From NCBI GenBank assembly GCA_021807085.1, contig JAKAPM010000002.1, positions 9,125 to 73,124 on the forward strand: a DNA stretch of 64,000 nucleotides. Reading direction: 5' to 3'. Position 1 is the stretch's first letter. Every line of letters begins with the position of its first letter. A program made the position numbers and the translations under genes. Positions 6,785-60,280 of this stretch are shown here, one piece after another. The DNA is from Nanobdellota archaeon (GTDB lineage Archaea; Nanobdellota; Nanobdellia; Parvarchaeales; Parvarchaeaceae). A model generated the notes under the pieces. That model searched no databases and was not told the origin of the DNA. It worked only from the letters and a program-made list of their open reading frames with translations.

Positions 6785-6949
6785 ATCTGTACCTCCAATA
6801 CGTATATAGTTTCAGCCATTTAAGGCCATAAATTATATTGAATAATAAAGCGCGACGGCATATTTAAATGTTTTCATACTGGGCTGTGAAGGGGTTTGCT
6901 CGGGAAACTGCAAAACAAAGGTTTAAAGGTCGCGGTGCTGCTTACTTGT

Positions 6950-10705: not shown

Positions 10706-10876
10706 ATGGAAAGAGGCCAGATGCCGGTAACTGAGATAATAGCTATAATCCTTGCGATCATAGTCCTGCTGGTTGGGATAGCTATAGCACTCTACTTGTC
10801 GCACGGAGGGAACAGCATCTCGACTGCTATAGTGCAGCTGTTTTCGTTCAGATGGCTGTACGGTGGCGGACTGTGA
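10706..10876 (+). CDS. mini pilin-like protein 1 (56 aa; class III-like N-terminus MERG|QMPVTEIIAIILAIIVLLVG)
   Basis: Short basic N-terminus ending R-G, followed by a hydrophobic helix of about 22 residues. Not in the ORF track because it is under 60 aa. Confidence 0.45.
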   Translation: MERGQMPVTEIIAIILAIIVLLVGIAIALYLSHGGNSISTAIVQLFSFRWLYGGGL

Positions 10877-11043
10877 ACAACAGAGGTGTAATAAGCGCGT
10901 TCTTCACGTATATCATACTCATAATAATAGGGATAGTGCTGATACTGATATTCCTAGAGTTATTCACGCCCTACAAGATATCGTCGGTCTTCGGGAATTT
11001 TATATCCTCGCTGACCAACATAAACCCGGGTAGATATGCTTAA
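10852..11043 (+). CDS. mini pilin-like protein 2 (63 aa; ...NNRG|VISAFFTYIILIIIGIVLILIF)
   Basis: In the ORF track. RG followed by a hydrophobic helix of about 24 residues. Overlaps ORF 1 by 25 nt. Confidence 0.45.
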   Translation: MAVRWRTVNNRGVISAFFTYIILIIIGIVLILIFLELFTPYKISSVFGNFISSLTNINPGRYA

Positions 11044-11182
11044 CAGGGGCGTTTCGGATTTCATGCTCCTTCTGATAGTAACAATCATAGTGCTAATCGT
11101 AATAGTGATATTCTATCTCGTATTATATTCACCTTCGTCGCTAGAGCACATACTGCCCAAGTTTCCGTCCATACCGGTGTAG
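11036..11182 (+). CDS. mini pilin-like protein 3 (48 aa; MLNRG|VSDFMLLLIVTIIVLIVIVIFYLVL)
   Basis: RG plus a hydrophobic helix. Overlaps ORF 2 by 8 nt. Confidence 0.45.
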   Translation: MLNRGVSDFMLLLIVTIIVLIVIVIFYLVLYSPSSLEHILPKFPSIPV

Positions 11183-11185
11183 AAT

Positions 11186-11347
11186 ATGGAAGCTATCTGG
11201 TTCTACATACTCGCTGTCATATTGGGTGTTGTATTGGTGATTACTTATATATTGTTGGTAGGTCCAGCCGTGATATTGAAGGACATAACTGGCGCATTCA
11301 CTGGTTTTGAAAATTCTCTGTTTTCTGCGTTTGGAAAAGCGTACTGA
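11186..11347 (+). CDS. small hydrophobic protein 4 (53 aa; MEAIWFYILAVILGVVLVITYILLVG...)
   Basis: Begins 4 nt after ORF 3. Single TM helix and no RG motif. Confidence 0.4.
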   Translation: MEAIWFYILAVILGVVLVITYILLVGPAVILKDITGAFTGFENSLFSAFGKAY

Positions 11348-11382
11348 GCGGTTTAAAGTTTATATTTCTGTTTCTACATCAG

Positions 11383-13494: not shown

Positions 13495-13944
13495 TCAGGA
13501 TTTTATCTGCACTATACTCTCGCAGAATCCTCCGGATTTGTAGGTCTGCCCGCCTATCTCCACGGAGCTGCCTGTCGTGTTACCTATGAAGATGTTGTTA
13601 CCCGGCTGCAGCTGGAAATCCTGCGAGAATATGCTTGAACCTACAAAGTATGCACCGGCGAAAACCGGACCGGTCAGCGGAGGAATCTCGGCGTAAACGC
13701 TGTAATTCAGACCGGGACTGCCTTCCGACACTGTGACCCTGAAATAATCCGTCTTGGTAGGGGTGCTGACGTTGACCGCCGATATGTTGCACTGGGCGGG
13801 ACTACCGGTGAGCGACGGATTAGTTTGGCCTATGGCTAGCAACGAGAAGTGGAACACGGAGCTCGCTACCAGTATGCCTATCACTACGAAGGATATAAGG
13901 AGGACCATTATGATGATATAATCTATCGTAGATGTTCCTGTCAT
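13495..13944 (-). CDS. pilin-like extracellular protein (149 aa), last gene of five-gene operon
   Basis: N-terminus MTG|TSTIDYIIIMVLLISFVVIGILVA (G followed by a hydrophobic helix). Mature part is Ser/Thr/Gly-rich. Confidence 0.6.
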   Translation of the reverse strand: MTGTSTIDYIIIMVLLISFVVIGILVASSVFHFSLLAIGQTNPSLTGSPAQCNISAVNVSTPTKTDYFRVTVSEGSPGLNYSVYAEIPPLTGPVFAGAYFVGSSIFSQDFQLQPGNNIFIGNTTGSSVEIGGQTYKSGGFCESIVQIKS

Positions 13945-13945
13945 A

Positions 13946-15439
13946 TCAGGCCGCCACCGCGCACAAGTACATCTGATTCATGCCGAGGTAAGCAGCGCTG
14001 TCCACGTGCAGGTTCTGCTGGAACCAGCCGACTATCGAGCCTGCACACTGCTCCAGACCGCTTGTCTTGAAAAGAGTGGTACCCACAAGATTCGGGATGT
14101 TGGACAGCACATAATTGTTGCAGAAGGTATTGGTCTTGCATCCTGCACTGCTGGCACCTATGACTATCCCGCTCGCAGCAGCTCCGGCTATGGATCCGAA
14201 GCTCAACGAGGCGCTCGGAAGGCCGCGCGTGAGCAGCGCATAGGTCGTTACTGCCCTGGAACACTCGTACTCTATCCCGGAAGTCGGGTAATTTACGACG
14301 AAACTGGTCTGTACGCATTCGGACGGAAGCGTGACTTTGTCGGGAGGGAACCTCGTCCCGACGAGGCTGTTCAGGTAGACGATGTAGAGCTGTGCCTTCG
14401 ATATGGACTTGTTGCTGTCTATCGGCACCGCGTTGGCACTCCCTGATGTCTTGTTCTTGTAGCTGTAGTTGACGGTGAAGCCGGGCCTGAGGTAGTTGAA
14501 ATAGGATACGTTCACCACGGAAGTCGGCTTAACAGGTTCTGTTATCTGGCAGGTGTTCGGGACCTCGTAGGAATTCAGCACCGAATCGTAGCCGATGGAG
14601 CACACGTAATCCCCGCTCTGGTTCTTTGCGCAGAAGTCTGTGTACGGCGTAGAGCATCCTGTCGTGGCGCCGTCCTGATTGGTGCACGTACCGACGGAAG
14701 TGTTAAAGGAACAGCCCTCCGACGCGGAACACAAGTACTGCGGTAGGTCGTTGTACGCGGTGTTGGGGGCGGTGGAACTGTAAAGGGGCACAACCGTCAG
14801 CGAGTAACCCTGTGTGAAGGAGGTGTAGCCTGGCTGGTCGAAGCAGCTGAAGAAATCGCTGTTGTTGGATATGCATTCACTGGGATTGTTAAAGTTGCAT
14901 GAGAAGCCGTTCGGATTGGATGATGAGAAAGGGTCAGCGCACGCTTGTGCGGCGGTGTGGTTGAGGCAGCTCACTTCTGTCGTGAAGGGTGTGTTCTGTA
15001 GATATGTGGTCAAGTTGCCAAAGGTTATGTTTTGGTTCAGATCCAGGCTTATAATGCTGCATATCCTCGTGGCGCCGGGGGACACCGTAAGTCCCTGCGA
15101 ACCGCCGTACTGGTCCCAGCATTCGGACAGCGCGGTAGCCACTCCGGAGAAGACACTGGGAGTGGACGCCCCGCTGGAGAAAGTCTGGGACGAAGTGGTG
15201 CAGCCGAAATCGGGGGGATTTATGCCATAGGACTGCAAGGTCGAGCTCAGGCAGAAGAAATTCGAGAAACACAAGTCGTTATAGAAGAAATTCGACACCT
15301 GCGAACTCGCGTAGCACGTGGTAGCGTTGGAGAACCCAACGCCCAGGAATAGGAAGGATGCGAATATGACTATTATGAATATCATGAATATCACTGACAG
15401 GATGATGAAAATGAAGTTCTCTCCCGGCGTCTCAGGCAT
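13946..15439 (-). CDS. Cys-rich extracellular protein with pilin-like N-terminal helix (497 aa)
   Basis: MPETPG|ENFIFIILSVIFMIFIIVIFA, then about 470 aa rich in Cys (more than 25), Asn, Ser and Thr with many N-x-S/T sequons. Confidence 0.6.
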   Translation of the reverse strand: MPETPGENFIFIILSVIFMIFIIVIFASFLFLGVGFSNATTCYASSQVSNFFYNDLCFSNFFCLSSTLQSYGINPPDFGCTTSSQTFSSGASTPSVFSGVATALSECWDQYGGSQGLTVSPGATRICSIISLDLNQNITFGNLTTYLQNTPFTTEVSCLNHTAAQACADPFSSSNPNGFSCNFNNPSECISNNSDFFSCFDQPGYTSFTQGYSLTVVPLYSSTAPNTAYNDLPQYLCSASEGCSFNTSVGTCTNQDGATTGCSTPYTDFCAKNQSGDYVCSIGYDSVLNSYEVPNTCQITEPVKPTSVVNVSYFNYLRPGFTVNYSYKNKTSGSANAVPIDSNKSISKAQLYIVYLNSLVGTRFPPDKVTLPSECVQTSFVVNYPTSGIEYECSRAVTTYALLTRGLPSASLSFGSIAGAAASGIVIGASSAGCKTNTFCNNYVLSNIPNLVGTTLFKTSGLEQCAGSIVGWFQQNLHVDSAAYLGMNQMYLCAVAA

Positions 15440-15472
15440 AAACTAATAGAGTCACTGTCCACTATATATCGT

Positions 15473-16366
15473 TTATTTCGAAGTTATGCACACGAACACT
15501 CTGCTCTGTTTGTACACCATGGCGTTCGTGAGATAACCGCACTGCGGGATGTAGTAGGTGCACCCCGTGCTCAGGTTTCTCACCACCTTCGAGGGGTCGC
15601 CGTTGCTTAGGGAGCTGACCGTGCTCCGGGTCTCTGGAACGGTCTGGTTGCCGTAATAGCACTCGGCCGGGTCCAGCACCGGCTGCTGGTAGTTAGACGT
15701 CAGTATGCACTGGTCCTGGAAGGGTATTGTGCAGTCCTGCGGCGGATTGGTGGAGGGATAGCCGAAATACGAAACGAGATAACTGGAATTGGAGATTAAA
15801 TCCGACGGATTTACGTACTGTGCGCTGCCCCCGGTGCCATTGGTTATGAAAACTATCTGCAGCGGGTAGGAATTGTTGTAAGCGTTGTCTAGGGAACGTA
15901 TAAGCTGGCCATAGTCTACGCTGGTGCCGCTGCTGGGTGAGAGGATGCCGTAATAGCATTCGAACACTTGGTTCATGTTGGAGCTGCTTATCACGCTGTT
16001 TCCAGTGCCGCTGGTTGCACCGTGGAACAGGGAGAAGCACGACGACGCGTCCGCGAACAGCCTGCTGCTAACGTCGGACGTGGAGGAGAAGGCTATGTTC
16101 GAGCTCTGGAGGCACGATATCTGGACCTGGGCTGCCTGTTCGGGAGAGACGTAGTACTGCGATAAGCCGAAATAAGACGCTACGTACGTCAGGGGTGATA
16201 CGATAGAGTTTATCAGGTTGTACTGTTCGAACGCCACGAAACAGCTGAACCCGAAATTTATAGTGCTGATATCAGTTATTATCTGGAAGGAGAAAATCGC
16301 CACGATTATTCCGGCGATAACCACCAGGAAAACGGCTATTATCGTCAGTATTATCCCCTCCTCCAT
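15473..16366 (-). CDS. extracellular protein with pilin-like N-terminal helix (297 aa)
   Basis: MEEG|IILTIIAVFLVVIAGIIVAIFSF, then a Cys/Ser/Asn-rich domain. Confidence 0.6.
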   Translation of the reverse strand: MEEGIILTIIAVFLVVIAGIIVAIFSFQIITDISTINFGFSCFVAFEQYNLINSIVSPLTYVASYFGLSQYYVSPEQAAQVQISCLQSSNIAFSSTSDVSSRLFADASSCFSLFHGATSGTGNSVISSSNMNQVFECYYGILSPSSGTSVDYGQLIRSLDNAYNNSYPLQIVFITNGTGGSAQYVNPSDLISNSSYLVSYFGYPSTNPPQDCTIPFQDQCILTSNYQQPVLDPAECYYGNQTVPETRSTVSSLSNGDPSKVVRNLSTGCTYYIPQCGYLTNAMVYKQSRVFVCITSK

Positions 16367-16548
16367 CAGGCGCCTCCGCCGCCAAGAATGTTACCGAAGT
16401 ATGAGAACGGGGATTGCCCGTGCGAACTCACGTAGAACATGAGTGCCAGGACTGTTATGGCGATTACGAACGTTATCACCACTATTATGAGCCACGTTAT
16501 CCTCCACTCGACGCTGCCTTTGTTATTAATCATACCATCACTGGCCAA
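16366..16548 (-). CDS. small pilin-like protein (60 aa; ...NNKG|SVEWRITWLIIVVITFVIAITVLALMF)
   Basis: K-G followed by a hydrophobic helix and a GGGGA tail. Translationally coupled to its neighbours by overlapping stop/start codons. Confidence 0.5.
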   Translation of the reverse strand: MASDGMINNKGSVEWRITWLIIVVITFVIAITVLALMFYVSSHGQSPFSYFGNILGGGGA

Positions 16549-17044
16549 CGCACGGCGGACAGTACGGACTGTCGCCCTTCACGCACGCTGGTGTGCTCAT
16601 GTCGCAGTTCTCTATGACCGTGGCATTGTTGGCCACCACCGTGCTCTGGTCGCAGCTGAACAGGTCCGCTGTGTTGGATGGCGAGACCACCTTGCACGCG
16701 TTTAGGACCGACTGCGGCGGGGCTGATATGCAGTTCTGTACGCTGACGTAGTCCCCCTGGCCGTTCTTGTAATAGAGATAGTAGCATTCGTTGCTCAGGC
16801 ACGTCTGGTAGGCGGATGACTGGTTGTAGCAGGCGTCGGTCCCGTAGCACCTGAAGAGGGGCGTCCCTTCCATCCTGTTAGGATAACCGTATTCAGCGCT
16901 GGTGAACTGGTTCTCCAGTATGTCGTTGTTATTGCACCCCACCGGGAAGACCGACGAGAAATTCTGGTAGAAGGACACGAAGAGCACGATAGACACCGCT
17001 ATGCCGAATCCCACCTCGAACAGCATGAATTGTTCGTCGTCCAT
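16538..17044 (-). CDS. Cys-rich extracellular protein with N-terminal hydrophobic helix (168 aa), first gene of operon
   Basis: MDDEQFMLFEVGFGIAVSIVLFVSF, then a domain with about 14 Cys. Promoter-like ttgatttttattatgaaaaa lies about 20-30 nt upstream on the minus strand (plus coordinates about 17060-17078). Confidence 0.6.
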   Translation of the reverse strand: MDDEQFMLFEVGFGIAVSIVLFVSFYQNFSSVFPVGCNNNDILENQFTSAEYGYPNRMEGTPLFRCYGTDACYNQSSAYQTCLSNECYYLYYKNGQGDYVSVQNCISAPPQSVLNACKVVSPSNTADLFSCDQSTVVANNATVIENCDMSTPACVKGDSPYCPPCVGQ

Positions 17045-17530: not shown

Positions 17531-17577
17531 AGGAATTAATCTAAAAACTGGAAGTATAAATAACTATCACCAGTTCG

Positions 17578-18009
17578 TCATACCGACACAGAACCCTTGG
17601 CCGCTATCGTGGGCGGTGAGGATATGTTCATCGGGGTGTAATATATGTAGACCAGCCCGGAAAAATGTGATGTGGCGGTATAGGTTATGTTGCATTCGTA
17701 GTAGGCAAGAGTCTGCAAGTACCCGCCCCCGCACCCGGTATAGTTCTGGGAGCCGATTATCAGCGACACTGCGTCGATTTTTACGTTCTCGTTGAGTAGG
17801 TTTTGGACCTTCATGTAGAATATGCTGGACGGGGCGTAGTAACCTATTGCGATCACGTCGAAACCCTGCAGTCCGGAATAGGTTGCGGAAGTCGAGGCCT
17901 GTGAGAAGGTGGGGAAGAACGTAAGTACGAGCGAGACTGCGAGGATTATCGCCACCACCGCCAGCCCGTAGATAATGGCTATCTCCAGCGACATCTGCGC
18001 GCGCATCAT
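17578..18009 (-). CDS. type IV pilin-like protein with class III signal peptide (143 aa)
   Basis: MMRA|QMSLEIAIIYGLAVVAIILAVSLVLTFF: [KR][GA] then Q with a hydrophobic helix. Ser/Thr/Tyr-rich mature domain. The overlapping ORF 17567..18013 in another frame is rejected. Confidence 0.7.
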   Translation of the reverse strand: MMRAQMSLEIAIIYGLAVVAIILAVSLVLTFFPTFSQASTSATYSGLQGFDVIAIGYYAPSSIFYMKVQNLLNENVKIDAVSLIIGSQNYTGCGGGYLQTLAYYECNITYTATSHFSGLVYIYYTPMNISSPPTIAAKGSVSV

Positions 18010-18043
18010 ACAAAGGAGTTGGCTCCCATAGGATATTAATCTA

Positions 18044-18114
18044 AGCCTCCAGAGGGAGTTGAACCCTCGTCTCCTGCTTACGAAGCAGATGCTCTACCGC
18101 TGAGCTATGGAGGC
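18044..18114 (-). tRNA. tRNA-Thr (anticodon CGU)
   Basis: Folded manually: acceptor GCCTCCA/TGGAGGC, D-arm GCTC-AGCGGTA-GAGC, anticodon stem TCTGC/GCAGG with loop TTCGTAA, T-arm GAGGG-TTCAACT-CCCTC. No encoded CCA. Confidence 0.8.
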
Positions 18115-18123
18115 GACTATCTA

Positions 18124-18294
18124 AACCCTACGTTCTTCCGTGTTCTTTTCTTGTATTCGCCATCGCTTATTATATGTTTTCTAGCTTCGAAACTCTTGCC
18201 GCAGAAGAAGCATTTGACCTGTCCGAGCGAAGATGTGCGCCTGAAGTTGCCGCAGTTCGGACACCTGACCATCCTCACCGGCATAGTATCATTC
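18124..18294 (-). CDS. small zinc-ribbon protein (56 aa)
   Basis: MPVRMVRCPNCGNFRRTSSLGQVKCFFCGKSFEARKHIISDGEYKKRTRKNVGFR; C-x2-C...C-x2-C. Not in the ORF track (under 60 aa). Function unknown. Confidence 0.45.
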
Positions 18295-19011
18295 CCCGAC
18301 CAGAGATCCGGCCAGCTCGAAAAATGCCCTGGAAGAGGCTAGTTTCCTGTCCCAAAGAACCACCGGCAGACCCTGTTTCAGGGCGGAGTATAGGGACTTG
18401 TCTTCGGGGACTATCCACGTGTTGCTTATTCCAGTTATTTCGGATGCTTCCCTCTCGCCTACTCTGTCCCTGATTCTCCTGTCGTACCTGTTCATCACCA
18501 GCCCCAGGACGTTCACGCCGCTGCTCCTGAGTTCGTCGTTCAGCTTCCTCGCTTCTATCATCGCGGTTATCTCCGGGACTGAAACTATTATGGCGCTGAT
18601 GCCGCGTATCGCCTTGACGAAGTCGACGTCGTACGACGGCTTTGAGTCTATTATTATGAAATCGTAGTTTCTCTCCACTTTCTGTATCTGGTAGAACAGG
18701 TTTATTATCTTGTACCTCGCGTTGCCGTCGCCCCTCCCCTTGAACACCCTGGACGGGAGGATGTGCAGGTTGTTCACGTCTGTCTTGTATATGGCGTATT
18801 CGACCGGCACGGAGCTGTTGAACACGTCCTCCAGAGAATATTTATACCCGACGAAGCCGAAATATATCGCCACGTGCGGCGTCTCTAGATTCGCGTCTAT
18901 TATCAGAGTCTTCTTTCCCAGCGATGCCAGCGTCGCGGCGATGTTGACCGACGTGGTCGTCTTGCCGACCCCTCCCTTCGGGCTCATGACAGCTATAACT
19001 TTGGCTACCAT
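18289..19011 (-). CDS. ParA/MinD-family P-loop ATPase
   Basis: 240 aa. Deviant Walker A SPKGGVGKTTTSVN, and Walker B IIIDSKP. Confidence 0.8.
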   Translation of the reverse strand: MVAKVIAVMSPKGGVGKTTTSVNIAATLASLGKKTLIIDANLETPHVAIYFGFVGYKYSLEDVFNSSVPVEYAIYKTDVNNLHILPSRVFKGRGDGNARYKIINLFYQIQKVERNYDFIIIDSKPSYDVDFVKAIRGISAIIVSVPEITAMIEARKLNDELRSSGVNVLGLVMNRYDRRIRDRVGEREASEITGISNTWIVPEDKSLYSALKQGLPVVLWDRKLASSRAFFELAGSLVGE

Positions 19012-20392: not shown

Positions 20393-21260
20393 TTATAGCC
20401 TCCATCTCAGAACTGTTGCACGTATTGGTGGCGGTGACGGAACATATGTTGGTAACGTCCGCGCCAAGGCCGGAATACAGTGATGCATACACAGGATTTA
20501 GAAAAGCGCTCTCGTTCGTCACTATGTTGAATATATGAGCCGGCGAATCGCATGCTGTGGCGTTCAGGAGATGAAAGGTCCTGAACGTGAAGGGCCCGTA
20601 GAAGGACACATCGTTGGACACCACACTGCCATTGCCGAAGAGCATAGTATTCTGCCCCAGTTCCTTAAGGGATAAAATAGTGCCGATCATATTGGTCTCG
20701 TTGCCGAACTTCGTGGAGTTGACCAGTCTTGCATCGTATACCACAGGCGCAGCGCTGGGGAGACTGCTAAGGTTCGAAGCCAACAGCTCGCTGTAGAGGG
20801 AGTAGACCTCGAACGCGGTCTGGTTGTACATCTCTTCTATGTCGCTGGCGTTCAGCGTGGATATCAGTACAGACAGGTTGTCCCTGGCCCGTGCGCAGAT
20901 GCTTATATTGGCCACCTCGCACATCGACAGCAGGCCAGTGTCCTTGACGATGGAGGCATACTCGCTGCCGCTCGGTGTGCCGAAATATTGGGAGGGCAGC
21001 TGCGGAAACGCGGGAACTATCACGTAGTTGCAGCCGAACACGATGGAATTATTGACCTGGCTGCCGTAGAAGGCGTTCACCGAGGTTATGTTGGGTATGG
21101 AATATTCGCCAACGAATAGACTCTGCGCCAGCCTGTTCGCGTCCTGCTGGACCAGCAGACCGGACTTGTAGCTGTAGTTCACGTACATGAATGCTACTGC
21201 GACGGCAAGAAAGACCGCTACGGCGAACAGTGCAATCGTCAGGCTATTTATCTTTGCCAT
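20370..21260 (-). CDS. secreted/anchored Asn/Ser-rich glycoprotein-like protein (296 aa)
   Basis: MAKINSLTIALFAVAVFLAVAVAFMYV signal/anchor. Many N-x-S/T sequons. Confidence 0.55.
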   Translation of the reverse strand: MAKINSLTIALFAVAVFLAVAVAFMYVNYSYKSGLLVQQDANRLAQSLFVGEYSIPNITSVNAFYGSQVNNSIVFGCNYVIVPAFPQLPSQYFGTPSGSEYASIVKDTGLLSMCEVANISICARARDNLSVLISTLNASDIEEMYNQTAFEVYSLYSELLASNLSSLPSAAPVVYDARLVNSTKFGNETNMIGTILSLKELGQNTMLFGNGSVVSNDVSFYGPFTFRTFHLLNATACDSPAHIFNIVTNESAFLNPVYASLYSGLGADVTNICSVTATNTCNSSEMEAINASFYVG

Positions 21261-22050
21261 CGGAAAGTTTCCCCATAAACTCCTTGGCCAGAATCTCCGG
21301 TACCACGCCTATTTCGTTTATCCCAAGGAGTTCGAACACGTCCACAAGCCTGTTGTGCACTTCCACGTGAAAATGGCCGTCGCCGTACTCGAGCAGCGCG
21401 ATGGTGGTGTCCCCGCCCCCGATGTGCGCAACGACTTTCTTCAGAGTATCGGCCAAATCGAAAAGAGTCACCGGATCCAGATCCACTATCGAGGCGTGGC
21501 GCACCGGAGCTATGTTGACCTGCACATCCGAGACCGGGGCGAATGGAACGTACGCTGATATGGTCTCGGTGCGGTGAATCTCCCTGTTGCCGACCTTCTT
21601 CACGTAATCGCACTGGAAACAGTTCCTCTCTCCAGATTTTGGTATCGGCAGGGCCACCAGGTCGAAGACCCCGTGGCCACCGCTGTGCCTAGCGGCGCAT
21701 ATGTTTCCGCCTATGCCGTAACCTAGCACGTCCCTGACCCTGTTGCCCAGTATACTGAAAAGCTGCTCCACGTCCTCTATCGAGTATTCCTTAAACCTGT
21801 CCCCGTGCCCGGCTTGGTCCACTATTATCTCTTCGTAGCCGTGCGCGGCAGAGGACTTGAAGAACTGCCCCTCCAGCGCGTATTTTGACGGCTGGACCGC
21901 GTTCTTAAGCTCGTAAACCCTGGCGTAGTCTTTCTTGAAAGGGAAGGAGACGATGCTCTCTGATTTATTGGAACAGGCTGGGCATCCCTTCTCGGATTTG
22001 GCCACTATGCTGAATCCAAGCGTCTCCGGATTAAGCCTGAACTCCCCCAT
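21244..22050 (-). CDS. GalT-like HIT-family protein, short paralog (268 aa)
   Basis: CPACSNK metal site, HSGGHG, and HFHVEVH histidine triad-like motif. Immediately downstream of secD. Confidence 0.5.
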   Translation of the reverse strand: MGEFRLNPETLGFSIVAKSEKGCPACSNKSESIVSFPFKKDYARVYELKNAVQPSKYALEGQFFKSSAAHGYEEIIVDQAGHGDRFKEYSIEDVEQLFSILGNRVRDVLGYGIGGNICAARHSGGHGVFDLVALPIPKSGERNCFQCDYVKKVGNREIHRTETISAYVPFAPVSDVQVNIAPVRHASIVDLDPVTLFDLADTLKKVVAHIGGGDTTIALLEYGDGHFHVEVHNRLVDVFELLGINEIGVVPEILAKEFMGKLSDGKDK

Positions 22051-25412: not shown

Positions 25413-26075
25413 ATGAGGGCGCAGTTTTCCTTCGAATTCGTCGTAGATGTAGCCCTTGCACTGGTCATCATAGGGTTCATAGTGGCCTTCTTTTCCTCCA
25501 TAACCACTAACAATACAGCCGCAGGGGATATGAACGGGATATGCAGTCTAATAGCCGATTCTGTGAACTCGGTCGTGAATTCCGGCGGCCTGTCCGCAAC
25601 GGTTTACCTTCCGCTGCAGAATATGACCGCAGCGGCTAATTACACGATAAACGTCTCAAACGGGGTCATAATAGTATACGCTTACTTCAACAAGAAGATA
25701 CCCGCGAAGTTCCTGTCCGGGACAAACGTCGTATCCTGCGGAGCCAACACCCGCGCCACGGCCAACGAATCGTTCGAACCTGCCAACCTGGTGCTGTACG
25801 CCAACTACAGCGACGTGGCTATAGGGTACGTGTACGCCAACTACAGCGCCAACTATTACCCATACTTCGTCTACGTCGGCGGATTCTACGGGAAGGCTAC
25901 TCTATACCTCCAGTATTCGAACGGCACCCTGCTGAAGCTTATGGACGCCACTTCCCCCTATATATACAACGCCAACGTAGGCCTTCCGATACTGACTACG
26001 GGCGAGTACACGCTGCTTGTGGAGGCGGACAACAACACAGCTCTGAGTGCCAGTCAGAGTTTCACGCTCGCTTAA
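25413..26075 (+). CDS. type IV pilin-like protein with class III signal peptide (220 aa)
   Basis: MRA|QFSFEFVVDVALALVIIGFIVAFF. Mature domain is Asn/Tyr/Ala-rich. Confidence 0.7.
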   Translation: MRAQFSFEFVVDVALALVIIGFIVAFFSSITTNNTAAGDMNGICSLIADSVNSVVNSGGLSATVYLPLQNMTAAANYTINVSNGVIIVYAYFNKKIPAKFLSGTNVVSCGANTRATANESFEPANLVLYANYSDVAIGYVYANYSANYYPYFVYVGGFYGKATLYLQYSNGTLLKLMDATSPYIYNANVGLPILTTGEYTLLVEADNNTALSASQSFTLA

Positions 26076-26126: not shown

Positions 26127-26603
26127 ATGGTAAAAAGAGCACAGTCGGCTTTGGAGTACATGATGACGTATGGTTGGGCCATACTAATCATAGTAATCGT
26201 AGCTGCTGTCCTGTACTCGATGGGCATATTCAACCCTTCGAGCAGCGTAACCACGTCGTCGAGCGGCTTCAGCCCGTTCACCGTCAGCGCGGCGCTTTGC
26301 AACAGCTCAGGTACATGGGTATCTTTCGTTGTAGGCGGTTATCCTAACGGTGCACAGAGCGCGACCAGCGTGACCCTGACCCTCACCGCGACAAGCGGCG
26401 CGAGCGGCAGCGGCACTGCAACTGCAATCGGATCGCCGACATACACGTCTGGCACAAGCTTCAAAATGACAGCTGCTGGCGTAACATGCGCGACAGCCGG
26501 AGGAAAGTTCTCCGAGAGTGGTTCGATAGGTTACTCGGTAACCACGACACTAGGTGCGCAGTCTTACACAACGACGGGTACGGTAGCAGGATCAGCTAGT
26601 TAA
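26127..26603 (+). CDS. type IV pilin (class III signal peptide), Ser/Thr/Gly-rich, candidate major pilin (158 aa)
   Basis: MVKRA|QSALEYMMTYGWAILIIVIVAAVLYSMGIF. TATA-like aagtatacttaaatag about 27 nt upstream (leaderless). Followed by an oligo-T terminator at 26610..26640. Confidence 0.8.
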   Translation: MVKRAQSALEYMMTYGWAILIIVIVAAVLYSMGIFNPSSSVTTSSSGFSPFTVSAALCNSSGTWVSFVVGGYPNGAQSATSVTLTLTATSGASGSGTATAIGSPTYTSGTSFKMTAAGVTCATAGGKFSESGSIGYSVTTTLGAQSYTTTGTVAGSAS

Positions 26604-29833: not shown

Positions 29834-30086
29834 ACCCTAATAAGATTAAATTCTGTATAAATAGATTAACGAAAGAGAGATATTGTATATCATTCATGCG
29901 GCTTTCTTCAGTATTTTCGACACATAATCTATGTCAGTAAAAACTAAAACCTACCGATTTATTTATTGCAAGTTGCCCACATCATCCAGGCTGTAGAATA
30001 TCTTTCCATTGGGCTTTATTCTCTTGAACTCTTCCAGTTCTTTGCCCCGACCGGGTGCCGACATTTCTGTCATATTAGAATGATAT

Positions 30087-31070: not shown

Positions 31071-31076
31071 ACCACA

Positions 31077-31436
31077 TCAATTTCTTTTGAACAGTCTACG
31101 TATAGAATCTACATTGTCTTCTATAAAAATATCAGAGCCATTTTTTATACCACCAAAGTTTTTCTTCAATATATTATTACCTTCAAAGGTAATGACTTTT
31201 TCTTTATTCTTTTTATTAATTATATACCCTTCTTTATCTGTTTCATAGCCAAAGGTGTCCAAAACAAAGTCAATAGCCGAACTATCAAATGTTATGTCTA
31301 GGTTTTCATCAACATTCTTATAAGTGTTAAGTTCTGTTTGCATATTATTATTATTACTATTATGTATAAATATTCGATTAATGACACCTTCTGCCTTATA
31401 AAGCTTACTAACTATCGAGTTAGAGAGGATCTTCAT
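31077..31436 (-). CDS. hypothetical protein of integrated element (119 aa)
   Basis: AT-rich ORF. Stop overlaps the integrase start region. Confidence 0.45.
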   Translation of the reverse strand: MKILSNSIVSKLYKAEGVINRIFIHNSNNNNMQTELNTYKNVDENLDITFDSSAIDFVLDTFGYETDKEGYIINKKNKEKVITFEGNNILKKNFGGIKNGSDIFIEDNVDSIRRLFKRN

Positions 31437-32389: not shown

Positions 32390-32499
32390 AATTTAAGCTT
32401 TCTCCGGCTGCTCTCGTATCTCTTCCACGGTCACCCTGACGACCTTGCCGGCTAGAGAGTTTGAAAGGATTAAAATTAAACGAGGGATTATAATAATTA

Positions 32500-41299: not shown

Positions 41300-41979
41300 T
41301 CAGTTGAAAAAACAGGCGGAGTAGAACACCTGGTAGGTGCGGGGAAACACCCTTATAATGTAAAGCGGCAGGTCGGTGCTAACAGGTACAGAACCTGAGT
41401 ATTGGCCGTTCGAAGAGGTCTCCGTCTGGCTCGCGATGTAGGCCCCAGACTCGGAATAGACGGTTATGTTGAACGTCACATCAGGGAGGAGGTCGCCGTT
41501 CTCGTCGAAAAACTCCAGCGAATAGTCTATGCTACCGGAAGAATAGGAGAAACTCGAATCCATGGAAGATAGGGGAAAATTCAGGCCCATCTCAGTTATC
41601 GTGCCGTTGAACGTGAGATAGGCGTGGTACAGGCCGGGTATGAACGGCATCAGCCCAGACATGTTGACGTTCGCCTGGTCTATGTACGACGACGCTCTGC
41701 TGCCTAATTCGACGATGTCGCCGCAGAAAAAGGAGGACTGCACTGAGAGCAGCGGGAAGGTGACGGCTATCACCGTCTTGGAGTCGGCCCCCTGGGCCGA
41801 CACGTAGTTCGCCGCTTGCACTATCTGGGCGGCTGCGGTGGATATCTGGTTGGAGGAGGACGAACTTGAGTAAGAAGTGTAGAAAAAGAGCGCGTACACC
41901 AGCGCGGCGGCTATCACTGCCATGGCTATCCCGAGGATTATCACGTATTCGGTCGTGTATTGGGCTCTGCGGCGGTCCA
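41300..41979 (-). CDS. pilin-like protein with class III signal peptide (226 aa)
   Basis: Probable start MDRRRA|QYTTEYVIILGIAMAVIAAALVYALFF (ATG at 41979; the tracker ORF starts 56 codons earlier). Ser-rich mature domain. Confidence 0.65.
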
Positions 41980-42033
41980 TAAATGATAGACGACCTTCAC
42001 GTATATATAAAATACGGGGAGAGATAGATATTA

Positions 42034-44969: not shown

Positions 44970-45836
44970 CTACGGGCTGGAAGAGTTGCCAGGCAACGGA
45001 CTGCCGCTGGAATTTGTTGCCGCGTAATTCGGCGTAAGGTAAAACACCAGGTCCAGCGGGCCGTAATATGGCGAGTTTGGGGTCCCGATGACCAGCGTCA
45101 GCAGGACTGTGGAGCTCCCACCAACTGTCATGGGAGGGTTGGGAGTCTCGTTCAGAATAGAGAAACCGGTAGTGTTCACCGAGATATTCGTGAGTGTGAC
45201 CGACGACGGCGCGTTCTGTATGCCTTTCGGGATGGACATGTCGAATGACAGGGTTTCGCGGCTGCCTGGAGTGACGTTGAAAGAACTCGACGAGGGGGAT
45301 ATTGTGAAATAAACGTACTGGTTGTCGGAAAAATCGGTCATCATATTCAGGTAGTTTACGTAGACGTCATTGTTATTTTGGTGGGGCTGCGCCGATCCTC
45401 CCGCTGGTCTGGCCCCGTGCGTACTTGAAACGGAAAAATTGAAGTTGAGATAACCCAGGCGCCATGCCGAGAGAAAAGCCATAGTCGCAAGCACAACCAC
45501 CAGCGCGAGGATTATCTCCCTTCGTGGCGCTCTTACGGACGGCAGGCGGACTTCCGGTTTCCTGATGCGTATGTATATTTTCTGTCTCGGAATCCTGGCG
45601 GACATGGGCTTTATCGACAAAGATCTCCTTACCAGTCTTTCTTCCACCCCTTTTATTTTCCCTAGCTTTACATTCTCCCCTCTTACAGGCAATCTTCTCC
45701 TGATTCTCTTGCTGAAGCCTTCAAACAGTTCGGACTTCCTGCCGACAGGACTGAGGGTCCTTGCGACGTCTCTCTTGAACCTGTAAAGCTCCAGCCAGTC
45801 CTTGAGTTTGGTTATAGGGTTCATTCTCATATTCAA
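44970..45836 (-). CDS. membrane-anchored surface protein (288 aa) with Arg/Lys-rich cytoplasmic N-tail, co-transcribed with giant YVTN protein
   Basis: About 120 aa basic N-terminus, a single TM EIILALVVVLATMAFLSAW, then a Ser/Thr/Asn/Pro-rich ectodomain. Start overlaps the upstream stop (ATGA). Confidence 0.55.
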   Translation of the reverse strand: MNMRMNPITKLKDWLELYRFKRDVARTLSPVGRKSELFEGFSKRIRRRLPVRGENVKLGKIKGVEERLVRRSLSIKPMSARIPRQKIYIRIRKPEVRLPSVRAPRREIILALVVVLATMAFLSAWRLGYLNFNFSVSSTHGARPAGGSAQPHQNNNDVYVNYLNMMTDFSDNQYVYFTISPSSSSFNVTPGSRETLSFDMSIPKGIQNAPSSVTLTNISVNTTGFSILNETPNPPMTVGGSSTVLLTLVIGTPNSPYYGPLDLVFYLTPNYAATNSSGSPLPGNSSSP

Positions 45837-48800
45837 CCAGAAGAGTGCCCCGCCCCTATGACCACTGCCCTCCAGTTATTTGCCTGCGGTATCGTTATTG
45901 GCGTCAGAAACGCGTTGGAGGGGTCGGATATCGCAGCCGACGTGTTGAGGACCGATATTTGATTGGTGTTCCAGTTCGCGATATACGCGAATTTGCCGTC
46001 TGTGGTGAGGGCTATTCCCTGTGGGTTGTTGAGCCCTCCCCCTCCTACAGCGTCTATCTCCGACAGCGATGTAAGGTTCACAACGTCTACCTGGTTAGCG
46101 CACGAGTTCACGACGTACGCTATCGTACTGTTCGCATTTGAAGTCAGCCAGTTAAGGCAGCCGCCTAGTGGCAGTGTTTTGACTATGGAATTGGTCTGCG
46201 TGTCTATAAACAGCAGAGAACTGGACGGCAAGCACTGCGTGTCGACAAGCGCGTATTTTCCGTTCTGTGTCACCTTAACGAATTGGGGACAGCCCGGCGC
46301 GGTTATCGTATCTATCAACGCGTTGCTTGCTGTCGAGATGACGGAGACTGTGGAATTTGTGAGGAGCCCGCCGTTCTTGTTATAGTTCCCGCTGATTATG
46401 CTGGACGCCACGTAGAGGAGGGACTTATCGGGTGTTATAGCTATGGCGTGTGGTAATGTATTGTTGAGGTATATATCGGTCAGGGGCATAAAAGAGGGTG
46501 AACCGTCGTTGGATACGGACAGGTTTTGAACAGCTACCGACGGGAGCGACCAGGAATTTTGCACGGAGTACATAAGGTTCCCGTCCTGCACGAGGCCAAG
46601 GTCGCCACTACAAGGGACATTGCACGACGGCGGAATCGGTATGTGGTTGGAACCCGTCCACATATACGTCATGGAGGAACCGCTGCCGCTTATGTACAAT
46701 TTTGACAGATCAGGAGAAGTCGCCAGGCCCCATATCGCTATTCCCGGACCGTAAACGTATCTAATCAGCCTCAATTGCGGCGTAAAGATTGCAACACCGT
46801 TGTTGCCTATTGTAGTAAGCCAGCTGTTTCCGCATGTAAAGGTCTCGTACACCGTTCCGTTCGGGGAAACGGTTATCGGACCGGGGCAGCCGCCAGATAC
46901 GTACGAATATTGCAATACGCCCGCGGAGACATTCACCGCCTCTATTATAGCACCCGTGCTCAGATAAGCCAGCCTGTTGTCGTTGCTGAACGCCAAGAAA
47001 GCGTTTCCGCCCCAGCCAGTATTGACGGTGTACATTACCTTGTGTGATGTCAAATTTATCATAGACATTGCGGCGCCTTCGTTGTTGCAGTCACCGCTCA
47101 TCTCTGCAGCGTACTCGCCGTTTGGTGATATCGCAATCCTTCCTGAGCAGATGGTGAGGAGATTGCCCACCCTGGTCTCGACCTGCAGGTTCACGGGGTT
47201 GTATACGACGAGCGGGCTCTCTTCATGCCAGTGAAAAAGCGCGAAAAGACGGCTACCTCCGCTTGAAAACATGAGGGAGGACAAGTCGGTGCCCTGGTAA
47301 TACTGCTCGAGGGCTATTGTGTTGTTGGCCGTGTAAATCTTTGTAACGTCCGCATTGTTCTGGCACCACGCCCCTGTGTAAACATAATTACCATCGTGGG
47401 AGACTGTCACAGCCCTGATACACCCGCCGTGAGTCACGCTCCCTATCACAGTCGAATAGGTGTTAGTGACGGCATTTATGACGGAAACTTCATTGCTGCT
47501 GTAGCAGGCTATGTAAGCGTACTGCCCGTTTGGGGTGAACGCGATTCCTTCGGGATTGTTGCAGTTGATACTCCCTATGTCCATCACCAGGGAATTTGTC
47601 GCTGCGTCTATCACCGAGACTGTGTTGGAGCCGTAATTTGATGCGTAAACCTCTGAAGAGTTGGTGGGGGAGACAGCGAGGACATACGGGTTTGACTGCA
47701 CGCTTATAGTTGTCGTAGGGGTTCCCGACGGGTAAGAGAACACCGAAACGGTGTTCCCGTTCCAGTTTGTCACAAATATCTCGTTGTCCGTCACGGCCAC
47801 GTCCTGCGGGGAATTTAGCCCGTTCCCGCTTATCGTCTGCACTACCTGCAGGGTGGTGTTGTCTATCACCGAGACTGTGTTGGAATTCGAATTGACAACA
47901 TATATATAGCCGTCCGGCGCCACAGTAATGCCGAGAGGATTGTGGCCGACAAGTATGTTCTTCACAACTACGTAGGACGAGGAGTTCATGACTGACACGC
48001 TGCCCTGTGTGTTTCCCCAGTCAAATGAATTCGATATGTAGAGGAATTTTCCTGTGTTGCTCATAGCCATGAACTGCGGGTCGTAGCCTATGCCGCTCAC
48101 GTTACCGACGATAGAATTTGTAGAAGTGCTAATCACCGAGATATTGTTGTAATTGTCGTAGCCGGATGGGACGTATACGTCGTTCGTCTTGCTGTCGTAC
48201 GCTATATCGAAAGCGTTAGGGGCGCCTATGCTGGTTATGTTGCCCACGTTCGTCATGGTTGCTGGATTTACCACAGAGACCGCGTTCGAACCGGAGTCGG
48301 CTACGTATATGTCCCCGTTGCTCGCCGTGACCATCTCCTGCGGGCTCCCCAGAGTGCCTATATGTTTGAAATCTGAGAAAGTGCTAGGATTCGACAGGTT
48401 GACCACGTCCACCGCGTTCTGTCCGCAGCCTTCGAGAGAGACAAAGGCGTATTTCGAGTTTGGCGGTACGTCGATATAGAAGTCGCCGCATCCAGCCGTC
48501 CAGTACTTCTTTATCAGGCTGAAATTCTGCGTGCTAAACACCCCCAAGGTCGACCAGCCGTCAGGTTCGTAAGCTATGCTGCCGTTCGCTGAAAAAGCTA
48601 TCTGTGATACGCCCCACGTCGGATTGCCGATTGTAGTTATCAGTTTGTTGTCGGTAGTGTTTATCTCCGCGAGCGTGCCTGTCCAGCTGCTTACGTACGC
48701 GATGTCGTTTGTCGCCTGAAAAGGCCCTCCGCTGATGAACGGCGCTATCTTGGCGCCGATGCTACCGGATGACATGTAATTGGTGCTGAAAACGTTGCTC

Positions 48801-49198
48801 GAGGTGTACAAGACGTCGACTTTCACGGACGAAAAAGAGTTAGTGGACCCAAAGTTTCCAGAGATGTAACACAGTGTAGACCCGCCTTCGTCCAGCTTGC
48901 TGCTATCGCATGTATAGGTAGTGTATGTGTTGCCGCCGGCTGTAGCGTTAAGGCTGTCTATGGTTATTGCACTGCCAGCTATATTTTGAAGTTGCAGGCC
49001 CATCTGGCTGCTGCTCATCGAGGCTGTAGAAACCGTTATGCCGGAGAATCCGCTTATCACCAGGCTGACCGGGGGGCTTATGTTGAATATACCCATCTCG
49101 TACATTATGGCTGCGGCTATAACTATTATGAGGATGGCCCAGCCATATGTCATCATGTATTCTAAGGCCGATTGGGACTTCTGGCCGCAAGGTGCCAT
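45833..49198 (-). CDS. giant surface protein (1121 aa): class III (pilin-type) N-terminus fused to multiple YVTN-type beta-propeller repeats
   Basis: N-terminus MAPCGQKS|QSALEYMMTYGWAILIIVIAAAIMYEMGIF is nearly identical to the pilin at 26127. At least 15 repeats of the form G...P.GIA..PDG...YV.N..SNTVSVID. Confidence 0.8.
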   Translation of the reverse strand: MAPCGQKSQSALEYMMTYGWAILIIVIAAAIMYEMGIFNISPPVSLVISGFSGITVSTASMSSSQMGLQLQNIAGSAITIDSLNATAGGNTYTTYTCDSSKLDEGGSTLCYISGNFGSTNSFSSVKVDVLYTSSNVFSTNYMSSGSIGAKIAPFISGGPFQATNDIAYVSSWTGTLAEINTTDNKLITTIGNPTWGVSQIAFSANGSIAYEPDGWSTLGVFSTQNFSLIKKYWTAGCGDFYIDVPPNSKYAFVSLEGCGQNAVDVVNLSNPSTFSDFKHIGTLGSPQEMVTASNGDIYVADSGSNAVSVVNPATMTNVGNITSIGAPNAFDIAYDSKTNDVYVPSGYDNYNNISVISTSTNSIVGNVSGIGYDPQFMAMSNTGKFLYISNSFDWGNTQGSVSVMNSSSYVVVKNILVGHNPLGITVAPDGYIYVVNSNSNTVSVIDNTTLQVVQTISGNGLNSPQDVAVTDNEIFVTNWNGNTVSVFSYPSGTPTTTISVQSNPYVLAVSPTNSSEVYASNYGSNTVSVIDAATNSLVMDIGSINCNNPEGIAFTPNGQYAYIACYSSNEVSVINAVTNTYSTVIGSVTHGGCIRAVTVSHDGNYVYTGAWCQNNADVTKIYTANNTIALEQYYQGTDLSSLMFSSGGSRLFALFHWHEESPLVVYNPVNLQVETRVGNLLTICSGRIAISPNGEYAAEMSGDCNNEGAAMSMINLTSHKVMYTVNTGWGGNAFLAFSNDNRLAYLSTGAIIEAVNVSAGVLQYSYVSGGCPGPITVSPNGTVYETFTCGNSWLTTIGNNGVAIFTPQLRLIRYVYGPGIAIWGLATSPDLSKLYISGSGSSMTYMWTGSNHIPIPPSCNVPCSGDLGLVQDGNLMYSVQNSWSLPSVAVQNLSVSNDGSPSFMPLTDIYLNNTLPHAIAITPDKSLLYVASSIISGNYNKNGGLLTNSTVSVISTASNALIDTITAPGCPQFVKVTQNGKYALVDTQCLPSSSLLFIDTQTNSIVKTLPLGGCLNWLTSNANSTIAYVVNSCANQVDVVNLTSLSEIDAVGGGGLNNPQGIALTTDGKFAYIANWNTNQISVLNTSAAISDPSNAFLTPITIPQANNWRAVVIGAGHSSG

Positions 49199-59159: not shown

Positions 59160-59723
59160 CTTTTTCACGATAGACAGCATCCTCGAGAGGTTCCTCTTGA
59201 ATTCCTTCTCGCTGGAATTGTTGAGTATATAATAGTCAGAGACCGCTATGACTTCGGCAACGCCGTAGCCGAGCTCGAGTTTCTCCCTCCATTCGAATTC
59301 TGAGAGGGACGAGAAATCCTCCTTTGCCCTCTTCCTTCTGACTATCCTTCCGAATCTGACCATCTTGTCGGCTATTATTCCGAGCACAACGGCCGTGTAC
59401 CCTTCCTCGACTATCTCGTTAACTTCGAGTATGTTCCTGGAGCCATCCAGGATTATTGTGTCGCTATTTTCGAATTCCTTCGCGATCTCCTTCTTGACCA
59501 GGTTTATGACGTACTTGTCCCCGAACTTTTTCCTGCGGTCCTTGGCGAAGTTCCTGAGCGTGCGGTTAGTTATTTTCAACCCGAGCCTGTTCATTTCATT
59601 CCTGACGGCGTCGCCCATGCCGACGGAGGGGACTCTCTTAGACGCCAGTATTTTCGCTGCCAGGGACTTGCCGCTGCCGGGCATACCAGTAAGTACTATG
59701 ACTCTCTTGTTTTTCATTTTCAT
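59154..59723 (-). CDS. UPF0200-family P-loop nucleotide kinase-like protein
   Basis: 189 aa. RVIVLTGMPGSGKS...VGMGDAVRNEMNRLGL is the typical UPF0200 N-terminus. Overlaps the upstream signal peptidase gene (ATGA). Confidence 0.6.
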   Translation of the reverse strand: MKMKNKRVIVLTGMPGSGKSLAAKILASKRVPSVGMGDAVRNEMNRLGLKITNRTLRNFAKDRRKKFGDKYVINLVKKEIAKEFENSDTIILDGSRNILEVNEIVEEGYTAVVLGIIADKMVRFGRIVRRKRAKEDFSSLSEFEWREKLELGYGVAEVIAVSDYYILNNSSEKEFKRNLSRMLSIVKKL

Positions 59724-60280
59724 ATATAGCTGGTGATGGTGTACAATAAATACTTGGGGTACCCGAGGTACGGTATAACCTGGCCTACCTTGCCCACGAC
59801 GTTCCCGTACGGGATATTGTATTCGAATGGAAGAGAATACGGATTGGCGTCGCCTTTGGTCGTGTAGTAGTATGCCCCGTTAACGACGGTCACGTTCACG
59901 ACTCTGTGTATTATGTCCTCGCCGGTGCCTTCTACCCTGTATATTATCACGTCACCCACATCTATCTGCGACGGCTGGACCTTGTAAGCGAGGGCGATAG
60001 ATCCCAACGGTATGCCGCCGGGAAAAGGCCAGCTGGAGACTGCCGACATGTTGTACCCGTGCAACTCGAGCCAGTCGTAATAGGTCAGCTGAATAGACGG
60101 GTACGAATGCACCATGCTGCTGGACACCACGGCGCTTATGTAGTCGAGCGGCGACAGGGCGTAAACCGATGGCAGCGCTACGTACGTTACCACGACGTAG
60201 ATTACAATTATATAAAAAAGTATTGAATATACGTTGTTTCCCGACAGCAGGTAAGAGACTGCCCGTTTGGCATCCATCAT
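59720..60280 (-). CDS. signal peptidase I (archaeal S26B/Sec11-type)
   Basis: 186 aa. N-terminal TM, AVVSSSMVHSYPS (catalytic Ser box), GDVIIYRV and HRVV boxes. Confidence 0.7.
   Translation of the reverse strand: MMDAKRAVSYLLSGNNVYSILFYIIVIYVVVTYVALPSVYALSPLDYISAVVSSSMVHSYPSIQLTYYDWLELHGYNMSAVSSWPFPGGIPLGSIALAYKVQPSQIDVGDVIIYRVEGTGEDIIHRVVNVTVVNGAYYYTTKGDANPYSLPFEYNIPYGNVVGKVGQVIPYLGYPKYLLYTITSYI

Follow-up and report, generated by a model that had tools for sequence, protein, structure and literature searches.

The gene 17578..18009 encodes a small protein whose N-terminus resembles that of a class III (type IV pilin-like) precursor, and four further genes with N-termini of this kind are dispersed over the same 64,000-nucleotide stretch of DNA, which was analysed as a whole and is called the window in the following. 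We asked whether the five proteins are in fact prepilins, and which machinery might serve them. The window has an archaeal gene content including a thermosome, TFB, aIF5B, SecD/SecF, ribosomal protein L15e and tRNA synthetases, and the ORFs cut by its ends encode SMC and a class II ribonucleotide reductase. Where a source was named, homologs of the 26127 protein came from Candidatus Parvarchaeota or Parvarchaeum, and a genome scan with the 26127 family returned matches in ARMAN-4, ARMAN-5 and many MAGs labelled 'Nanoarchaeota/Parvarchaeota'. The window was accordingly assigned to Parvarchaeota (ARMAN-type DPANN), ultra-small archaea of acid-mine habitats. The features discussed below are compiled in Table 1.

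Table 1. Features of the window. Genes are designated in the text by their first coordinate; the vertical bar marks the predicted cleavage site.
Feature	Coordinates	Strand	Remarks
Five-gene operon, Cys-rich N-terminally anchored proteins	13495..17044	(-)	N-terminal hydrophobic segments
Operon gene	13495..13944	(-)	
Operon gene	13946..15439	(-)	
Operon gene	15473..16366	(-)	
Operon gene	16366..16533	(-)	
Operon gene	16538..17044	(-)	
Focal gene, class III-type ORF, 143-aa small pilin-like protein	17578..18009	(-)	MMRA|QMSLE; leader MMRA, mature start QMSLE
tRNA-Thr (CGT)	18044..18114	(-)	ARAGORN; directly upstream of the focal gene
MinD/ParA-type ATPase	18289..19011	(-)	Pfam AAA_31/ParA/CbiA
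Class III-type ORF, 220-aa protein with its own globular domain	25413..26075	(+)	MRA|QFSFEF; immediately upstream of 26127
Class III-type ORF, 158-aa pilin	26127..26603	(+)	MVKRA|QSALE; leader MVKRA, invariant head QSALEYMMTYGWAILIIVIV, S/T/G-rich beta domain
Class III-type ORF, 226-aa protein	41300..41980	(-)	MDRRRA|QYTTEY; translation begins MDRRRAQYTTEY
288-aa membrane protein	44970..45836	(-)	start overlaps the stop of the 1121-aa gene
Class III-type ORF, 1121-aa modular pilin	45833..49198	(-)	MAPCGQKS|QSALE; leader MAPCGQKS, QSALEYMMTYGW head as in 26127, then NHL/YVTN beta-propeller repeats
Signal peptidase I gene	59720..60280		TIGR02228, 63 bits, above cutoff

An earlier note on this DNA, made from the sequence alone, had listed the five ORFs with an A|Q cleavage context. 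All five exist, and the residue at position -1 is Ala in four of them, but the fifth site (45833) reads KS|Q; Gly does not occur at this position in the five genes. The start of the 41300 gene had been placed at 41979; this frame contains 17 stop codons and the true coordinate is 41980. In each gene the basic leader comprises 3-8 residues and ends in [KR][A/S], and a hydrophobic segment of at least 20 residues follows directly. With leaders this short, the conserved site precedes the hydrophobic segment, which is the arrangement of class III signals. Gln+1 and Glu+5 are present throughout (QMSLE, QFSFE, QSALE, QYTTE and QSALE). A six-frame scan for [KR][AGS]Q...E and a subsequent stretch of 20 residues, no more than one of them charged or polar, detected five occurrences in the window, all of them in the five candidate genes, and none in 200 simulated windows (first-order Markov, dinucleotide-preserving). 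This supports class III N-termini over a chance pattern. In a Sec-type signal peptide, an n-region and an h-region of 7-15 residues precede a c-region with small residues at -3/-1, and cleavage takes place behind the hydrophobic core; the longer hydrophobic run and the site ahead of it argue against this type.

The site is kept in orthologs of the window genes. Moreover, Gln+1 and Glu+5 are invariant in the 26127, focal and 25413 families, the globular parts of which go down to 26-60% identity. In the structure models of the focal and the 26127 protein, the predicted N-terminal helix is one continuous helix of 24-30 residues preceded by the conserved site. A TATA-like box is located 20-35 nt upstream of the ATG of every candidate gene, and these positions are consistent with separate transcription of the genes and with leaders that are short or absent. 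Curated class III models of Pfam and NCBIfam gave nothing above threshold with the five proteins, neither at full length nor with the isolated N-termini of 39-44 residues. PF04021 (Class_IIIsignal) was absent from the Pfam scans up to E-values of 1 (full length) and 10 (N-termini), and TIGR02537 (arch_flag_Nterm) produced only a weak, sub-threshold match to 41300 (E 0.46). Other matches were weak as well (DUF7287, E 0.03-0.1; TIGR04205, E 0.07).

Relatives of the focal protein are 142-166 aa long and have an FQNLLNEN motif and two cysteines common to all. A word-indexed search found only 2 homologs, while exhaustive search and synteny together yielded about 20; the 10 cluster representatives obtained by exhaustive search all exhibit [KR/N][GA]Q...E at the N-terminus. 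The AF2 model of the focal protein (pLDDT 82.5) consists of a helix (residues 2-31) and a beta domain folded as a beta-sandwich. Its best PDB match in Foldseek was 8fk7, the archaeal type IV pilus subunit of Pyrobaculum calidifontis (E 1.5e-4, probability 1.0, 143 columns), followed by 8q30, the Sulfolobus AAP filament (E 9e-4). Furthermore, homology between the focal and 26127 families extends over the whole length of the proteins (hhalign probability 97.7%, E 2.3e-12, 137 columns). Profile searches with both families against PDB sequences retrieved only spurious matches to ankyrin, ribosomal protein eS1 and haemagglutinin.

The focal ortholog adjoins the L15e gene in at least 20 species. On its other side, beyond the tRNA gene, the MinD/ParA-type ATPase is encoded by the first protein-coding gene upstream, and this synteny is kept in 23 loci. 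The ATPase scored 129 bits against TIGR01969 minD_arch, below the cutoff of 202. FleN/MinD genes have been reported in clade-1 T4P loci (PMC4858521). The window protein might be a pilus-associated FleN/MinD or simply a general MinD; its gene is the sole candidate accessory gene for a pilus in the window. A 22-nt direct repeat flanks the focal gene beside the tRNA-Thr. We rejected an insertion scar as the reading of this repeat because at least 20 species share the order L15e-pilin-tRNA/MinD.

For the 26127 protein, 279 homologs were detected, and its family had 297 matches across GTDB species genomes, including 6-8 separate loci in single genomes of about 1 Mb. In an alignment of 47 sequences, the region from Q6 to F35 (QSALEYMMTYGWAILIIVIVA..LYS.GIF) is almost invariant, and the remainder is about 50% identical. 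The AF2 model (pLDDT 81) displays a helix (residues 8-31) followed by a beta-sandwich. It had no significant PDB match; the best pilin was 8fk7 in third place (E 0.02). The mature domain had been described as Ser/Thr/Gly-rich, and in fact these three residues make up 55% of its globular part, with no charged residue in the 102 residues after Glu+5. The strong promoter and terminator ascribed to this gene correspond to a TATA-like box (CTTAAATAG) about 20-29 nt upstream of the ATG and to four T5-T7 runs right after the stop codon. The promoter is not distinctive, however, because similar TATA-like boxes precede all the remaining candidates; it is the T5-T7 runs and the composition that set 26127 apart. 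Its choice as best major-pilin candidate is reasonable.

Orthologs of 25413 were found in 25 loci, and all of them read M[KR][GAS]QFS.EF. Profile comparison with the focal family aligned the N-terminal 33 columns only (E 1e-4, probability 57%), and no significant profile match to the 26127 family was obtained. The 41300 gene is preceded by a TATA-like sequence (TTTTATATATA) 23-33 nt upstream. Its orthologs read KKG|QYS.EY, and it showed weak similarity to the 26127 family in the N-terminus only. The resemblance of both proteins to the pilin families in profile comparisons thus covers only about 33 N-terminal residues.

The operon 13495..17044 had also been counted among the class III genes. 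Its proteins had no family matches in Pfam or NCBIfam. Some members or their orthologs carry degenerate class III-like sites (MEEG|ILLTI, NNKG|SVEWR and IKG|SSAIE), and to this extent the assignment stands; it does not hold for 16538. No pilin-like character was found for the latter family (MDVEQFLFFE), its site being not canonical and profile similarity to the 26127 family being absent. The 16366 gene encodes a product of about 55 aa, whose orthologs of 52-55 aa (MN.K[GA]|SVEWR) are conserved in 8 species. The operon as a whole is conserved in ARMAN-5 (locus L082) and partly in others. It is a putative minor-pilin or accessory set.

The largest of the five proteins combines a pilin N-terminus with an unrelated module. 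The beta-propeller part of 45833 was recognized by Pfam (NHL, 8e-17; Lactonase, 9e-14) and NCBIfam (beta_rpt_yvtn, 1.6e-32), and its head and first strands match the 26127 family over 65 residues (hhalign, E 6e-24). 45833 is thus a putative adhesin, which the pilin head would either present or anchor. At the DNA level, the heads of 26127 and 45833 agree in only 78% of positions, and many of the differences are synonymous. Recent gene conversion between both heads was therefore rejected, and the identity of the heads results from selection on the protein. The downstream gene 44970, which is probably co-transcribed with the 1121-aa gene, encodes a protein without a Pfam or NCBIfam match.

The same head is widespread in related genomes. 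In 1.2 Mb of relatives' loci, [KR][GAS]|QSALEYMMTYGW is carried by 91 distinct proteins with a bimodal length distribution, 30 of them having about 150-165 aa and 52 about 340-550 aa. The long proteins contain Laminin_G_3 (LamG), NHL/beta-propeller or weak DUF2341 modules; DUF2341 is a PilY-like adhesin domain reported in clade-1 loci (PMC4858521). Long and short forms differ in the cleavage site. Ser is found at -1 in 45 of 57 long forms versus 4 of 34 short forms (Fisher p 2e-10), and leaders are longer in the long proteins. The window fits this rule, with KRA|Q in the short pilin and KS|Q in the 1121-aa protein.

Genes for a T2SSE ATPase, a T2SSF/TadC platform protein or an A24 peptidase were not detected in the 64-kb window by ORF lists, Pfam/NCBIfam scans and inspection of the window-end ORFs, in agreement with the statement that assembly genes are missing from it. 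The exact focal protein is also encoded in MAG GCA_027320385.1 (contig DAHVLK010000016.1) and present in Logan run SRR13170411. Another contig of this MAG, DAHVLK010000008.1, harbors a T2SSE ATPase gene (P0150) followed by two T2SSF genes, which were likewise found in SRR13170411; the two contigs are linked by metagenomic binning and the one shared sequencing run. The ATPase locus adjoins an A-type ATP synthase operon. The surroundings of the ATPase gene are free of class III ORFs up to a distance of 10 kb, and the arrangement is the same in the nearest species. The ATPase homologs P0145, P0146, P0154 and P0155 belong to other species. The search for assembly loci elsewhere thus uncovered ATPase and platform genes on another contig of the bin, but not the peptidase. 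An A24 prepilin peptidase was not found in the window or in 1.5 Mb of fetched loci (regular expression plus transmembrane count); virB11, TadC and an A24 peptidase have been reported in Parvarchaeota MAGs (PMC7779479).

In relatives, class III-type genes and assembly genes do occur side by side. In one genome (HSP2.bin18, locus L069), two QSALEYMMTYGW-head proteins are encoded directly beside a divergent operon of two TadC-like genes and an ATPase gene, orthologous to the one on DAHVLK010000008.1 (Pfam T2SSF 5e-11 and 1.5e-15, T2SSE 1.3e-36). One of the head proteins is C-terminally related to the beta-propeller protein of the window and the other contains LamG (Laminin_G_3, 8e-11). Among the fetched loci, pilin paralogs are repeatedly accompanied by an ORF of 507 aa that has a Walker A motif.

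With the predicted assembly machine on another contig of the bin, the scattered pattern is real but ordinary for the lineage. At least 20 species, ARMAN-4 and ARMAN-5 among them, share the syntenic block operon-rpl15e-focal-MinD-(intervening genes)-SecDF-24615-25413-26127. Class III genes that stand alone, apart from the main locus, are typical of archaeal T4P, especially of clade 1 / system 1 (PMC4858521; bioRxiv 10.64898/2026.04.22.720090). System 1, which combines two platform genes with stand-alone pilins, has been reported from DPANN (bioRxiv 10.64898/2026.04.22.720090). The five genes are scattered in a way that is normal for archaea.

Two further claims of the earlier note, an unusually dense pilin complement and a lineage-specific A|Q site, did not survive the comparison with relatives. 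Their loci contain 5-9 Q/E-type class III ORFs per 64 kb, a figure biased upward because the loci were fetched for containing a pilin. Parvarchaeota genomes carry many copies, and ARMAN-4 has at least 12 such ORFs in the approximately 145 kb sampled; the density of the window is normal for Parvarchaeota. In orthologs of focal, 25413, 41300 and 26127, the site is mostly KG|Q or RG|Q. The -1 residue was surveyed in all N-termini of the type xxQ...E plus hydrophobic stretch, with -2 and -1 left unconstrained, in the 82 loci from relatives among a total of 85 loci (about 1.2 Mb). Among the 122 distinct N-termini, -1 was G in 55, S in 38, A in 28 and M in 1, and 115 had K or R at -2.

Taken together, we consider it likely that the five genes encode class III (type IV prepilin) precursors of the Epd or 'system 1' type, which are served by assembly genes located elsewhere. 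The leader would be removed at the cytoplasmic face by a membrane-bound A24-family prepilin peptidase encoded outside the window. The hydrophobic helices of about 25 residues would then be extracted from the membrane and polymerised by a single T2SSE ATPase and two TadC-like platform proteins. In such a filament the 158-aa 26127 protein is the likely main subunit, and the focal protein may be a second, low-copy pilin kept beside rpl15e. The 1121-aa protein could join this filament as a modular pilin or adhesin, probably in a tip position, or be anchored by its head. 25413 and 41300 would be substrates of the same peptidase, as minor pilins or surface-anchored proteins.

The class III signals might also be real while most of the proteins, once cleaved, are held by their helices in the membrane or S-layer as surface proteins, adhesins or binding proteins, comparable to the bindosome substrates of Sulfolobus, and only one small protein polymerises, possibly the Flp-sized product of about 55 aa encoded by 16366..16533. 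The 55-aa family conserved in 8 species does have the size of the Epd major pilin (PMC4858521). The restriction of pilin similarity in 25413 and 41300 to the N-terminal 33 or so residues suits a mere anchor, and so do the LamG or propeller modules and lengths of 340-550 aa of most QSALEYMMTYGW-head proteins in relatives. However, the 26127 and focal families are mutually homologous with a compact, pilin-like predicted fold, and 30 near-invariant head residues, maintained despite synonymous divergence, are more easily explained by packing contacts within a polymer than by simple anchoring. Known modular pilins, moreover, do enter pili (PMC8179133). We regard this explanation as improbable. Still far less credible are ordinary Sec signals or uncleaved (type II) signal anchors, processed if at all by signal peptidase I and with the Q/E pattern as a pilus-unrelated habit of the lineage: a signal peptidase I gene is present in the window and no Pfam or NCBIfam class III model scored above threshold, but a basic residue and [GAS]|Q lie 3-8 residues from Met1 ahead of a hydrophobic stretch of at least 20 residues, Q+1/E+5 is invariant across otherwise different families, the focal model matches solved archaeal pilins, and paralogs adjoin a T2SSE/T2SSF operon in relatives.

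The prepilin interpretation can be compared with known systems. Like the proteins of the Epd system (system 1, clade 1; Methanococcus maripaludis, Thermococcales), those of the window have a short basic leader, Gln+1 and Glu+5 (PMC3875500). Further common traits are many stand-alone pilin genes distant from the main locus, more than one minor pilin and large, adhesin-like proteins that contain DUF2341 (PMC4858521), together with the order of one ATPase gene and then two platform genes (bioRxiv 10.64898/2026.04.22.720090). The FleN/MinD ATPase associated with clade 1 (PMC4858521) may have its parallel in the MinD-type protein encoded next to the focal gene. In M. maripaludis, the DUF361/Epd pilins with the Q+1/E+5 signature are cut by EppA and several are not encoded in operons; their leaders end in Gly, and Gln+1 is thought to be needed for EppA processing (PMC3875500). 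In contrast to Epd, -1 is Ala or Ser in the window, and G, S or A in relatives, and unlike with DUF361 pilins, PF04021 was absent from scans of the window proteins. The Epd major pilin has about 70 aa and no globular domain, whereas the candidate described here has 158 aa and a beta-sandwich domain. The assembly operon, too, differs in having no pilin gene within 10 kb, and an EppA-like peptidase was not found in the window or in 1.5 Mb of fetched loci.

With the pilins of Pyrobaculum (8fk7) and Sulfolobus acidocaldarius (AAP, 8q30), the focal model shares an N-terminal helix and an Ig-like beta-sandwich. Identity to these pilins is only 14-17% and the global rmsd 16 A, the latter being high because the orientation of helix and domain differs. 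Unlike the window proteins, both pilins lack Gln+1 and Glu+5; Sulfolobus pilins have been described as devoid of E5 (PMC3875500).

The combination of an N-terminal pilin module with a grafted bulky binding module resembles PilB (vWA) and PilC (concanavalin/LamG-like) of Streptococcus sanguinis. Modular pilins of bacteria are believed to occupy the tip of the pilus and to mediate adhesion (PMC8179133). By analogy, the long head proteins appear to be archaeal counterparts of these pilins. They differ from PilB and PilC in being archaeal, with another pilin fold and with dozens of copies per small genome built on one almost invariant 30-residue head, and also in the preference of the modular forms for Ser at -1 and longer leaders.

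The families described here are new to databases, not to biology, and the general view of type IV filaments is unchanged. Proteins so far listed as hypothetical and missed by Pfam and NCBIfam have become candidates for a filament subunit (26127 family) and for adhesins (45833 type). For the annotation of DPANN genomes, [KR][GSA]|Q-x-x-x-E followed by a helix can serve as search motif.

ARMAN/Parvarchaeota cells are tiny, host-dependent archaea, and to our knowledge the subunits of the pilus-like connections of ARMAN have never been identified. Electron microscopy has revealed such connections to Thermoplasmatales hosts (cited in PMC5498576 and PMC10134863), and one genomic study of a Parvarchaeota family named only 'virB11 and TadC' as cell-contact genes (PMC7779479). 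The modular repertoire on one invariant head is the part of our results worth following up. As a tentative and rather speculative reading, the invariant head (QSALEYMMTYGWAILIIVIVA.ILYSMGIFNP) might be a universal adaptor in Parvarchaeota, through which a large and diversifying set of dispersed LamG, beta-propeller and DUF2341 adhesins is fed into a single type IV pilus machine that would act as host-attachment organelle. The sequence preference for Ser at -1 and longer leaders could then translate into processing kinetics and an order of incorporation different from those of the short pilins. If this reading were true, switching or mixing of adhesins would determine the host range of these episymbionts.

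The focal pilin-like gene is bracketed by a 22/23-nt direct repeat, one copy of which follows directly on tRNA-Thr and the other spans the start codon of rpl15e (ATGGGAGC). In L008, the locus of the nearest species, a 16-nt version of the repeat occurs at both places; it is absent in L004, the locus of another relative. The repeat was rejected as an insertion scar, since at least 20 species share the same order of genes here.

Features in the window with coordinates
Feature	Position	Strand	Remarks
ORF of a group of three recognisably alike in sequence	6896-7933	+
581-aa conserved protein	8957-10702	+
Four tiny ORFs (48-56 aa)	10740-11380		MAG annotation; come after 581-aa gene
55-aa protein MINNKG/SVEWRITW...	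16366-16533	-	inside five-gene operon
Direct repeat TTAGATTAAT(A)TCCTATGGGAGC, copy at rpl15e	17531-17552	-
Direct repeat, copy at tRNA-Thr	18020-18042	-
ORF of the group of three	21244-22050	-
Tyrosine recombinase	31433-32389		Pfam Phage_integrase 4e-11
ORF of the group of three	51539-52558	-
Archaeal signal peptidase I	59720-60280	-	TIGR02228, 63 bits, above cutoff
Class II ribonucleotide reductase with intein	60606-64000	-	extends past window end

Elsewhere in the window, the region 30000-32400 has a GC content of 0.35 compared to approx. 0.52 in the remaining sequence and contains the tyrosine recombinase gene, which is adjoined by a 327-aa orphan ORF. This region may represent a small integrated element. 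Within the intein of the ribonucleotide reductase lies a homing-endonuclease domain of the LAGLIDADG type (Pfam LAGLIDADG_3 1e-15), and the match to Intein_splicing was weak. The locus annotation overlapping the first of the three similar ORFs displayed GalP_UDP_transf/DUF4931/DUF4921 matches, and one of the three is located within the conserved pilin-MinD-SecDF block. No family match was obtained for the 581-aa protein. The signal peptidase encoded in the window is a Sec-pathway enzyme and not a prepilin peptidase.

In the mature protein encoded at 26127..26603, the best major-pilin candidate, 102 residues past Glu+5 are devoid of any charge, an extreme composition that fits an acid-exposed extracellular filament. 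An alternative candidate for the major pilin is the 55-aa protein of the operon of Cys-rich anchored proteins, which resembles Flp or Epd in size and is kept in eight species as MN.K[GA]SVEWR. Furthermore, stretches of the focal pilin beta-domain, with residues 77-131 and 43-104 scoring best, match ten stretches in the 3597-aa protein P0129 and four in the 4138-aa protein P0131. Apparently, giant surface proteins reuse the globular pilin fold as a repeat.

The residue preceding the predicted cleavage site (-1) of the pilin head varies with protein size, both among the relatives' loci (L004-L085) and in the window, where the 158-aa pilin at 26127 can be compared with the 1121-aa modular pilin at 45833. 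Among the relatives, serine occupies this position in 4 of the 34 short pilins but in 45 of the 57 long modular forms (Fisher p 2e-10); the latter also carry longer leaders. The relationship between -1 residue and size may mean that structural pilins and adhesin pilins are processed differently.
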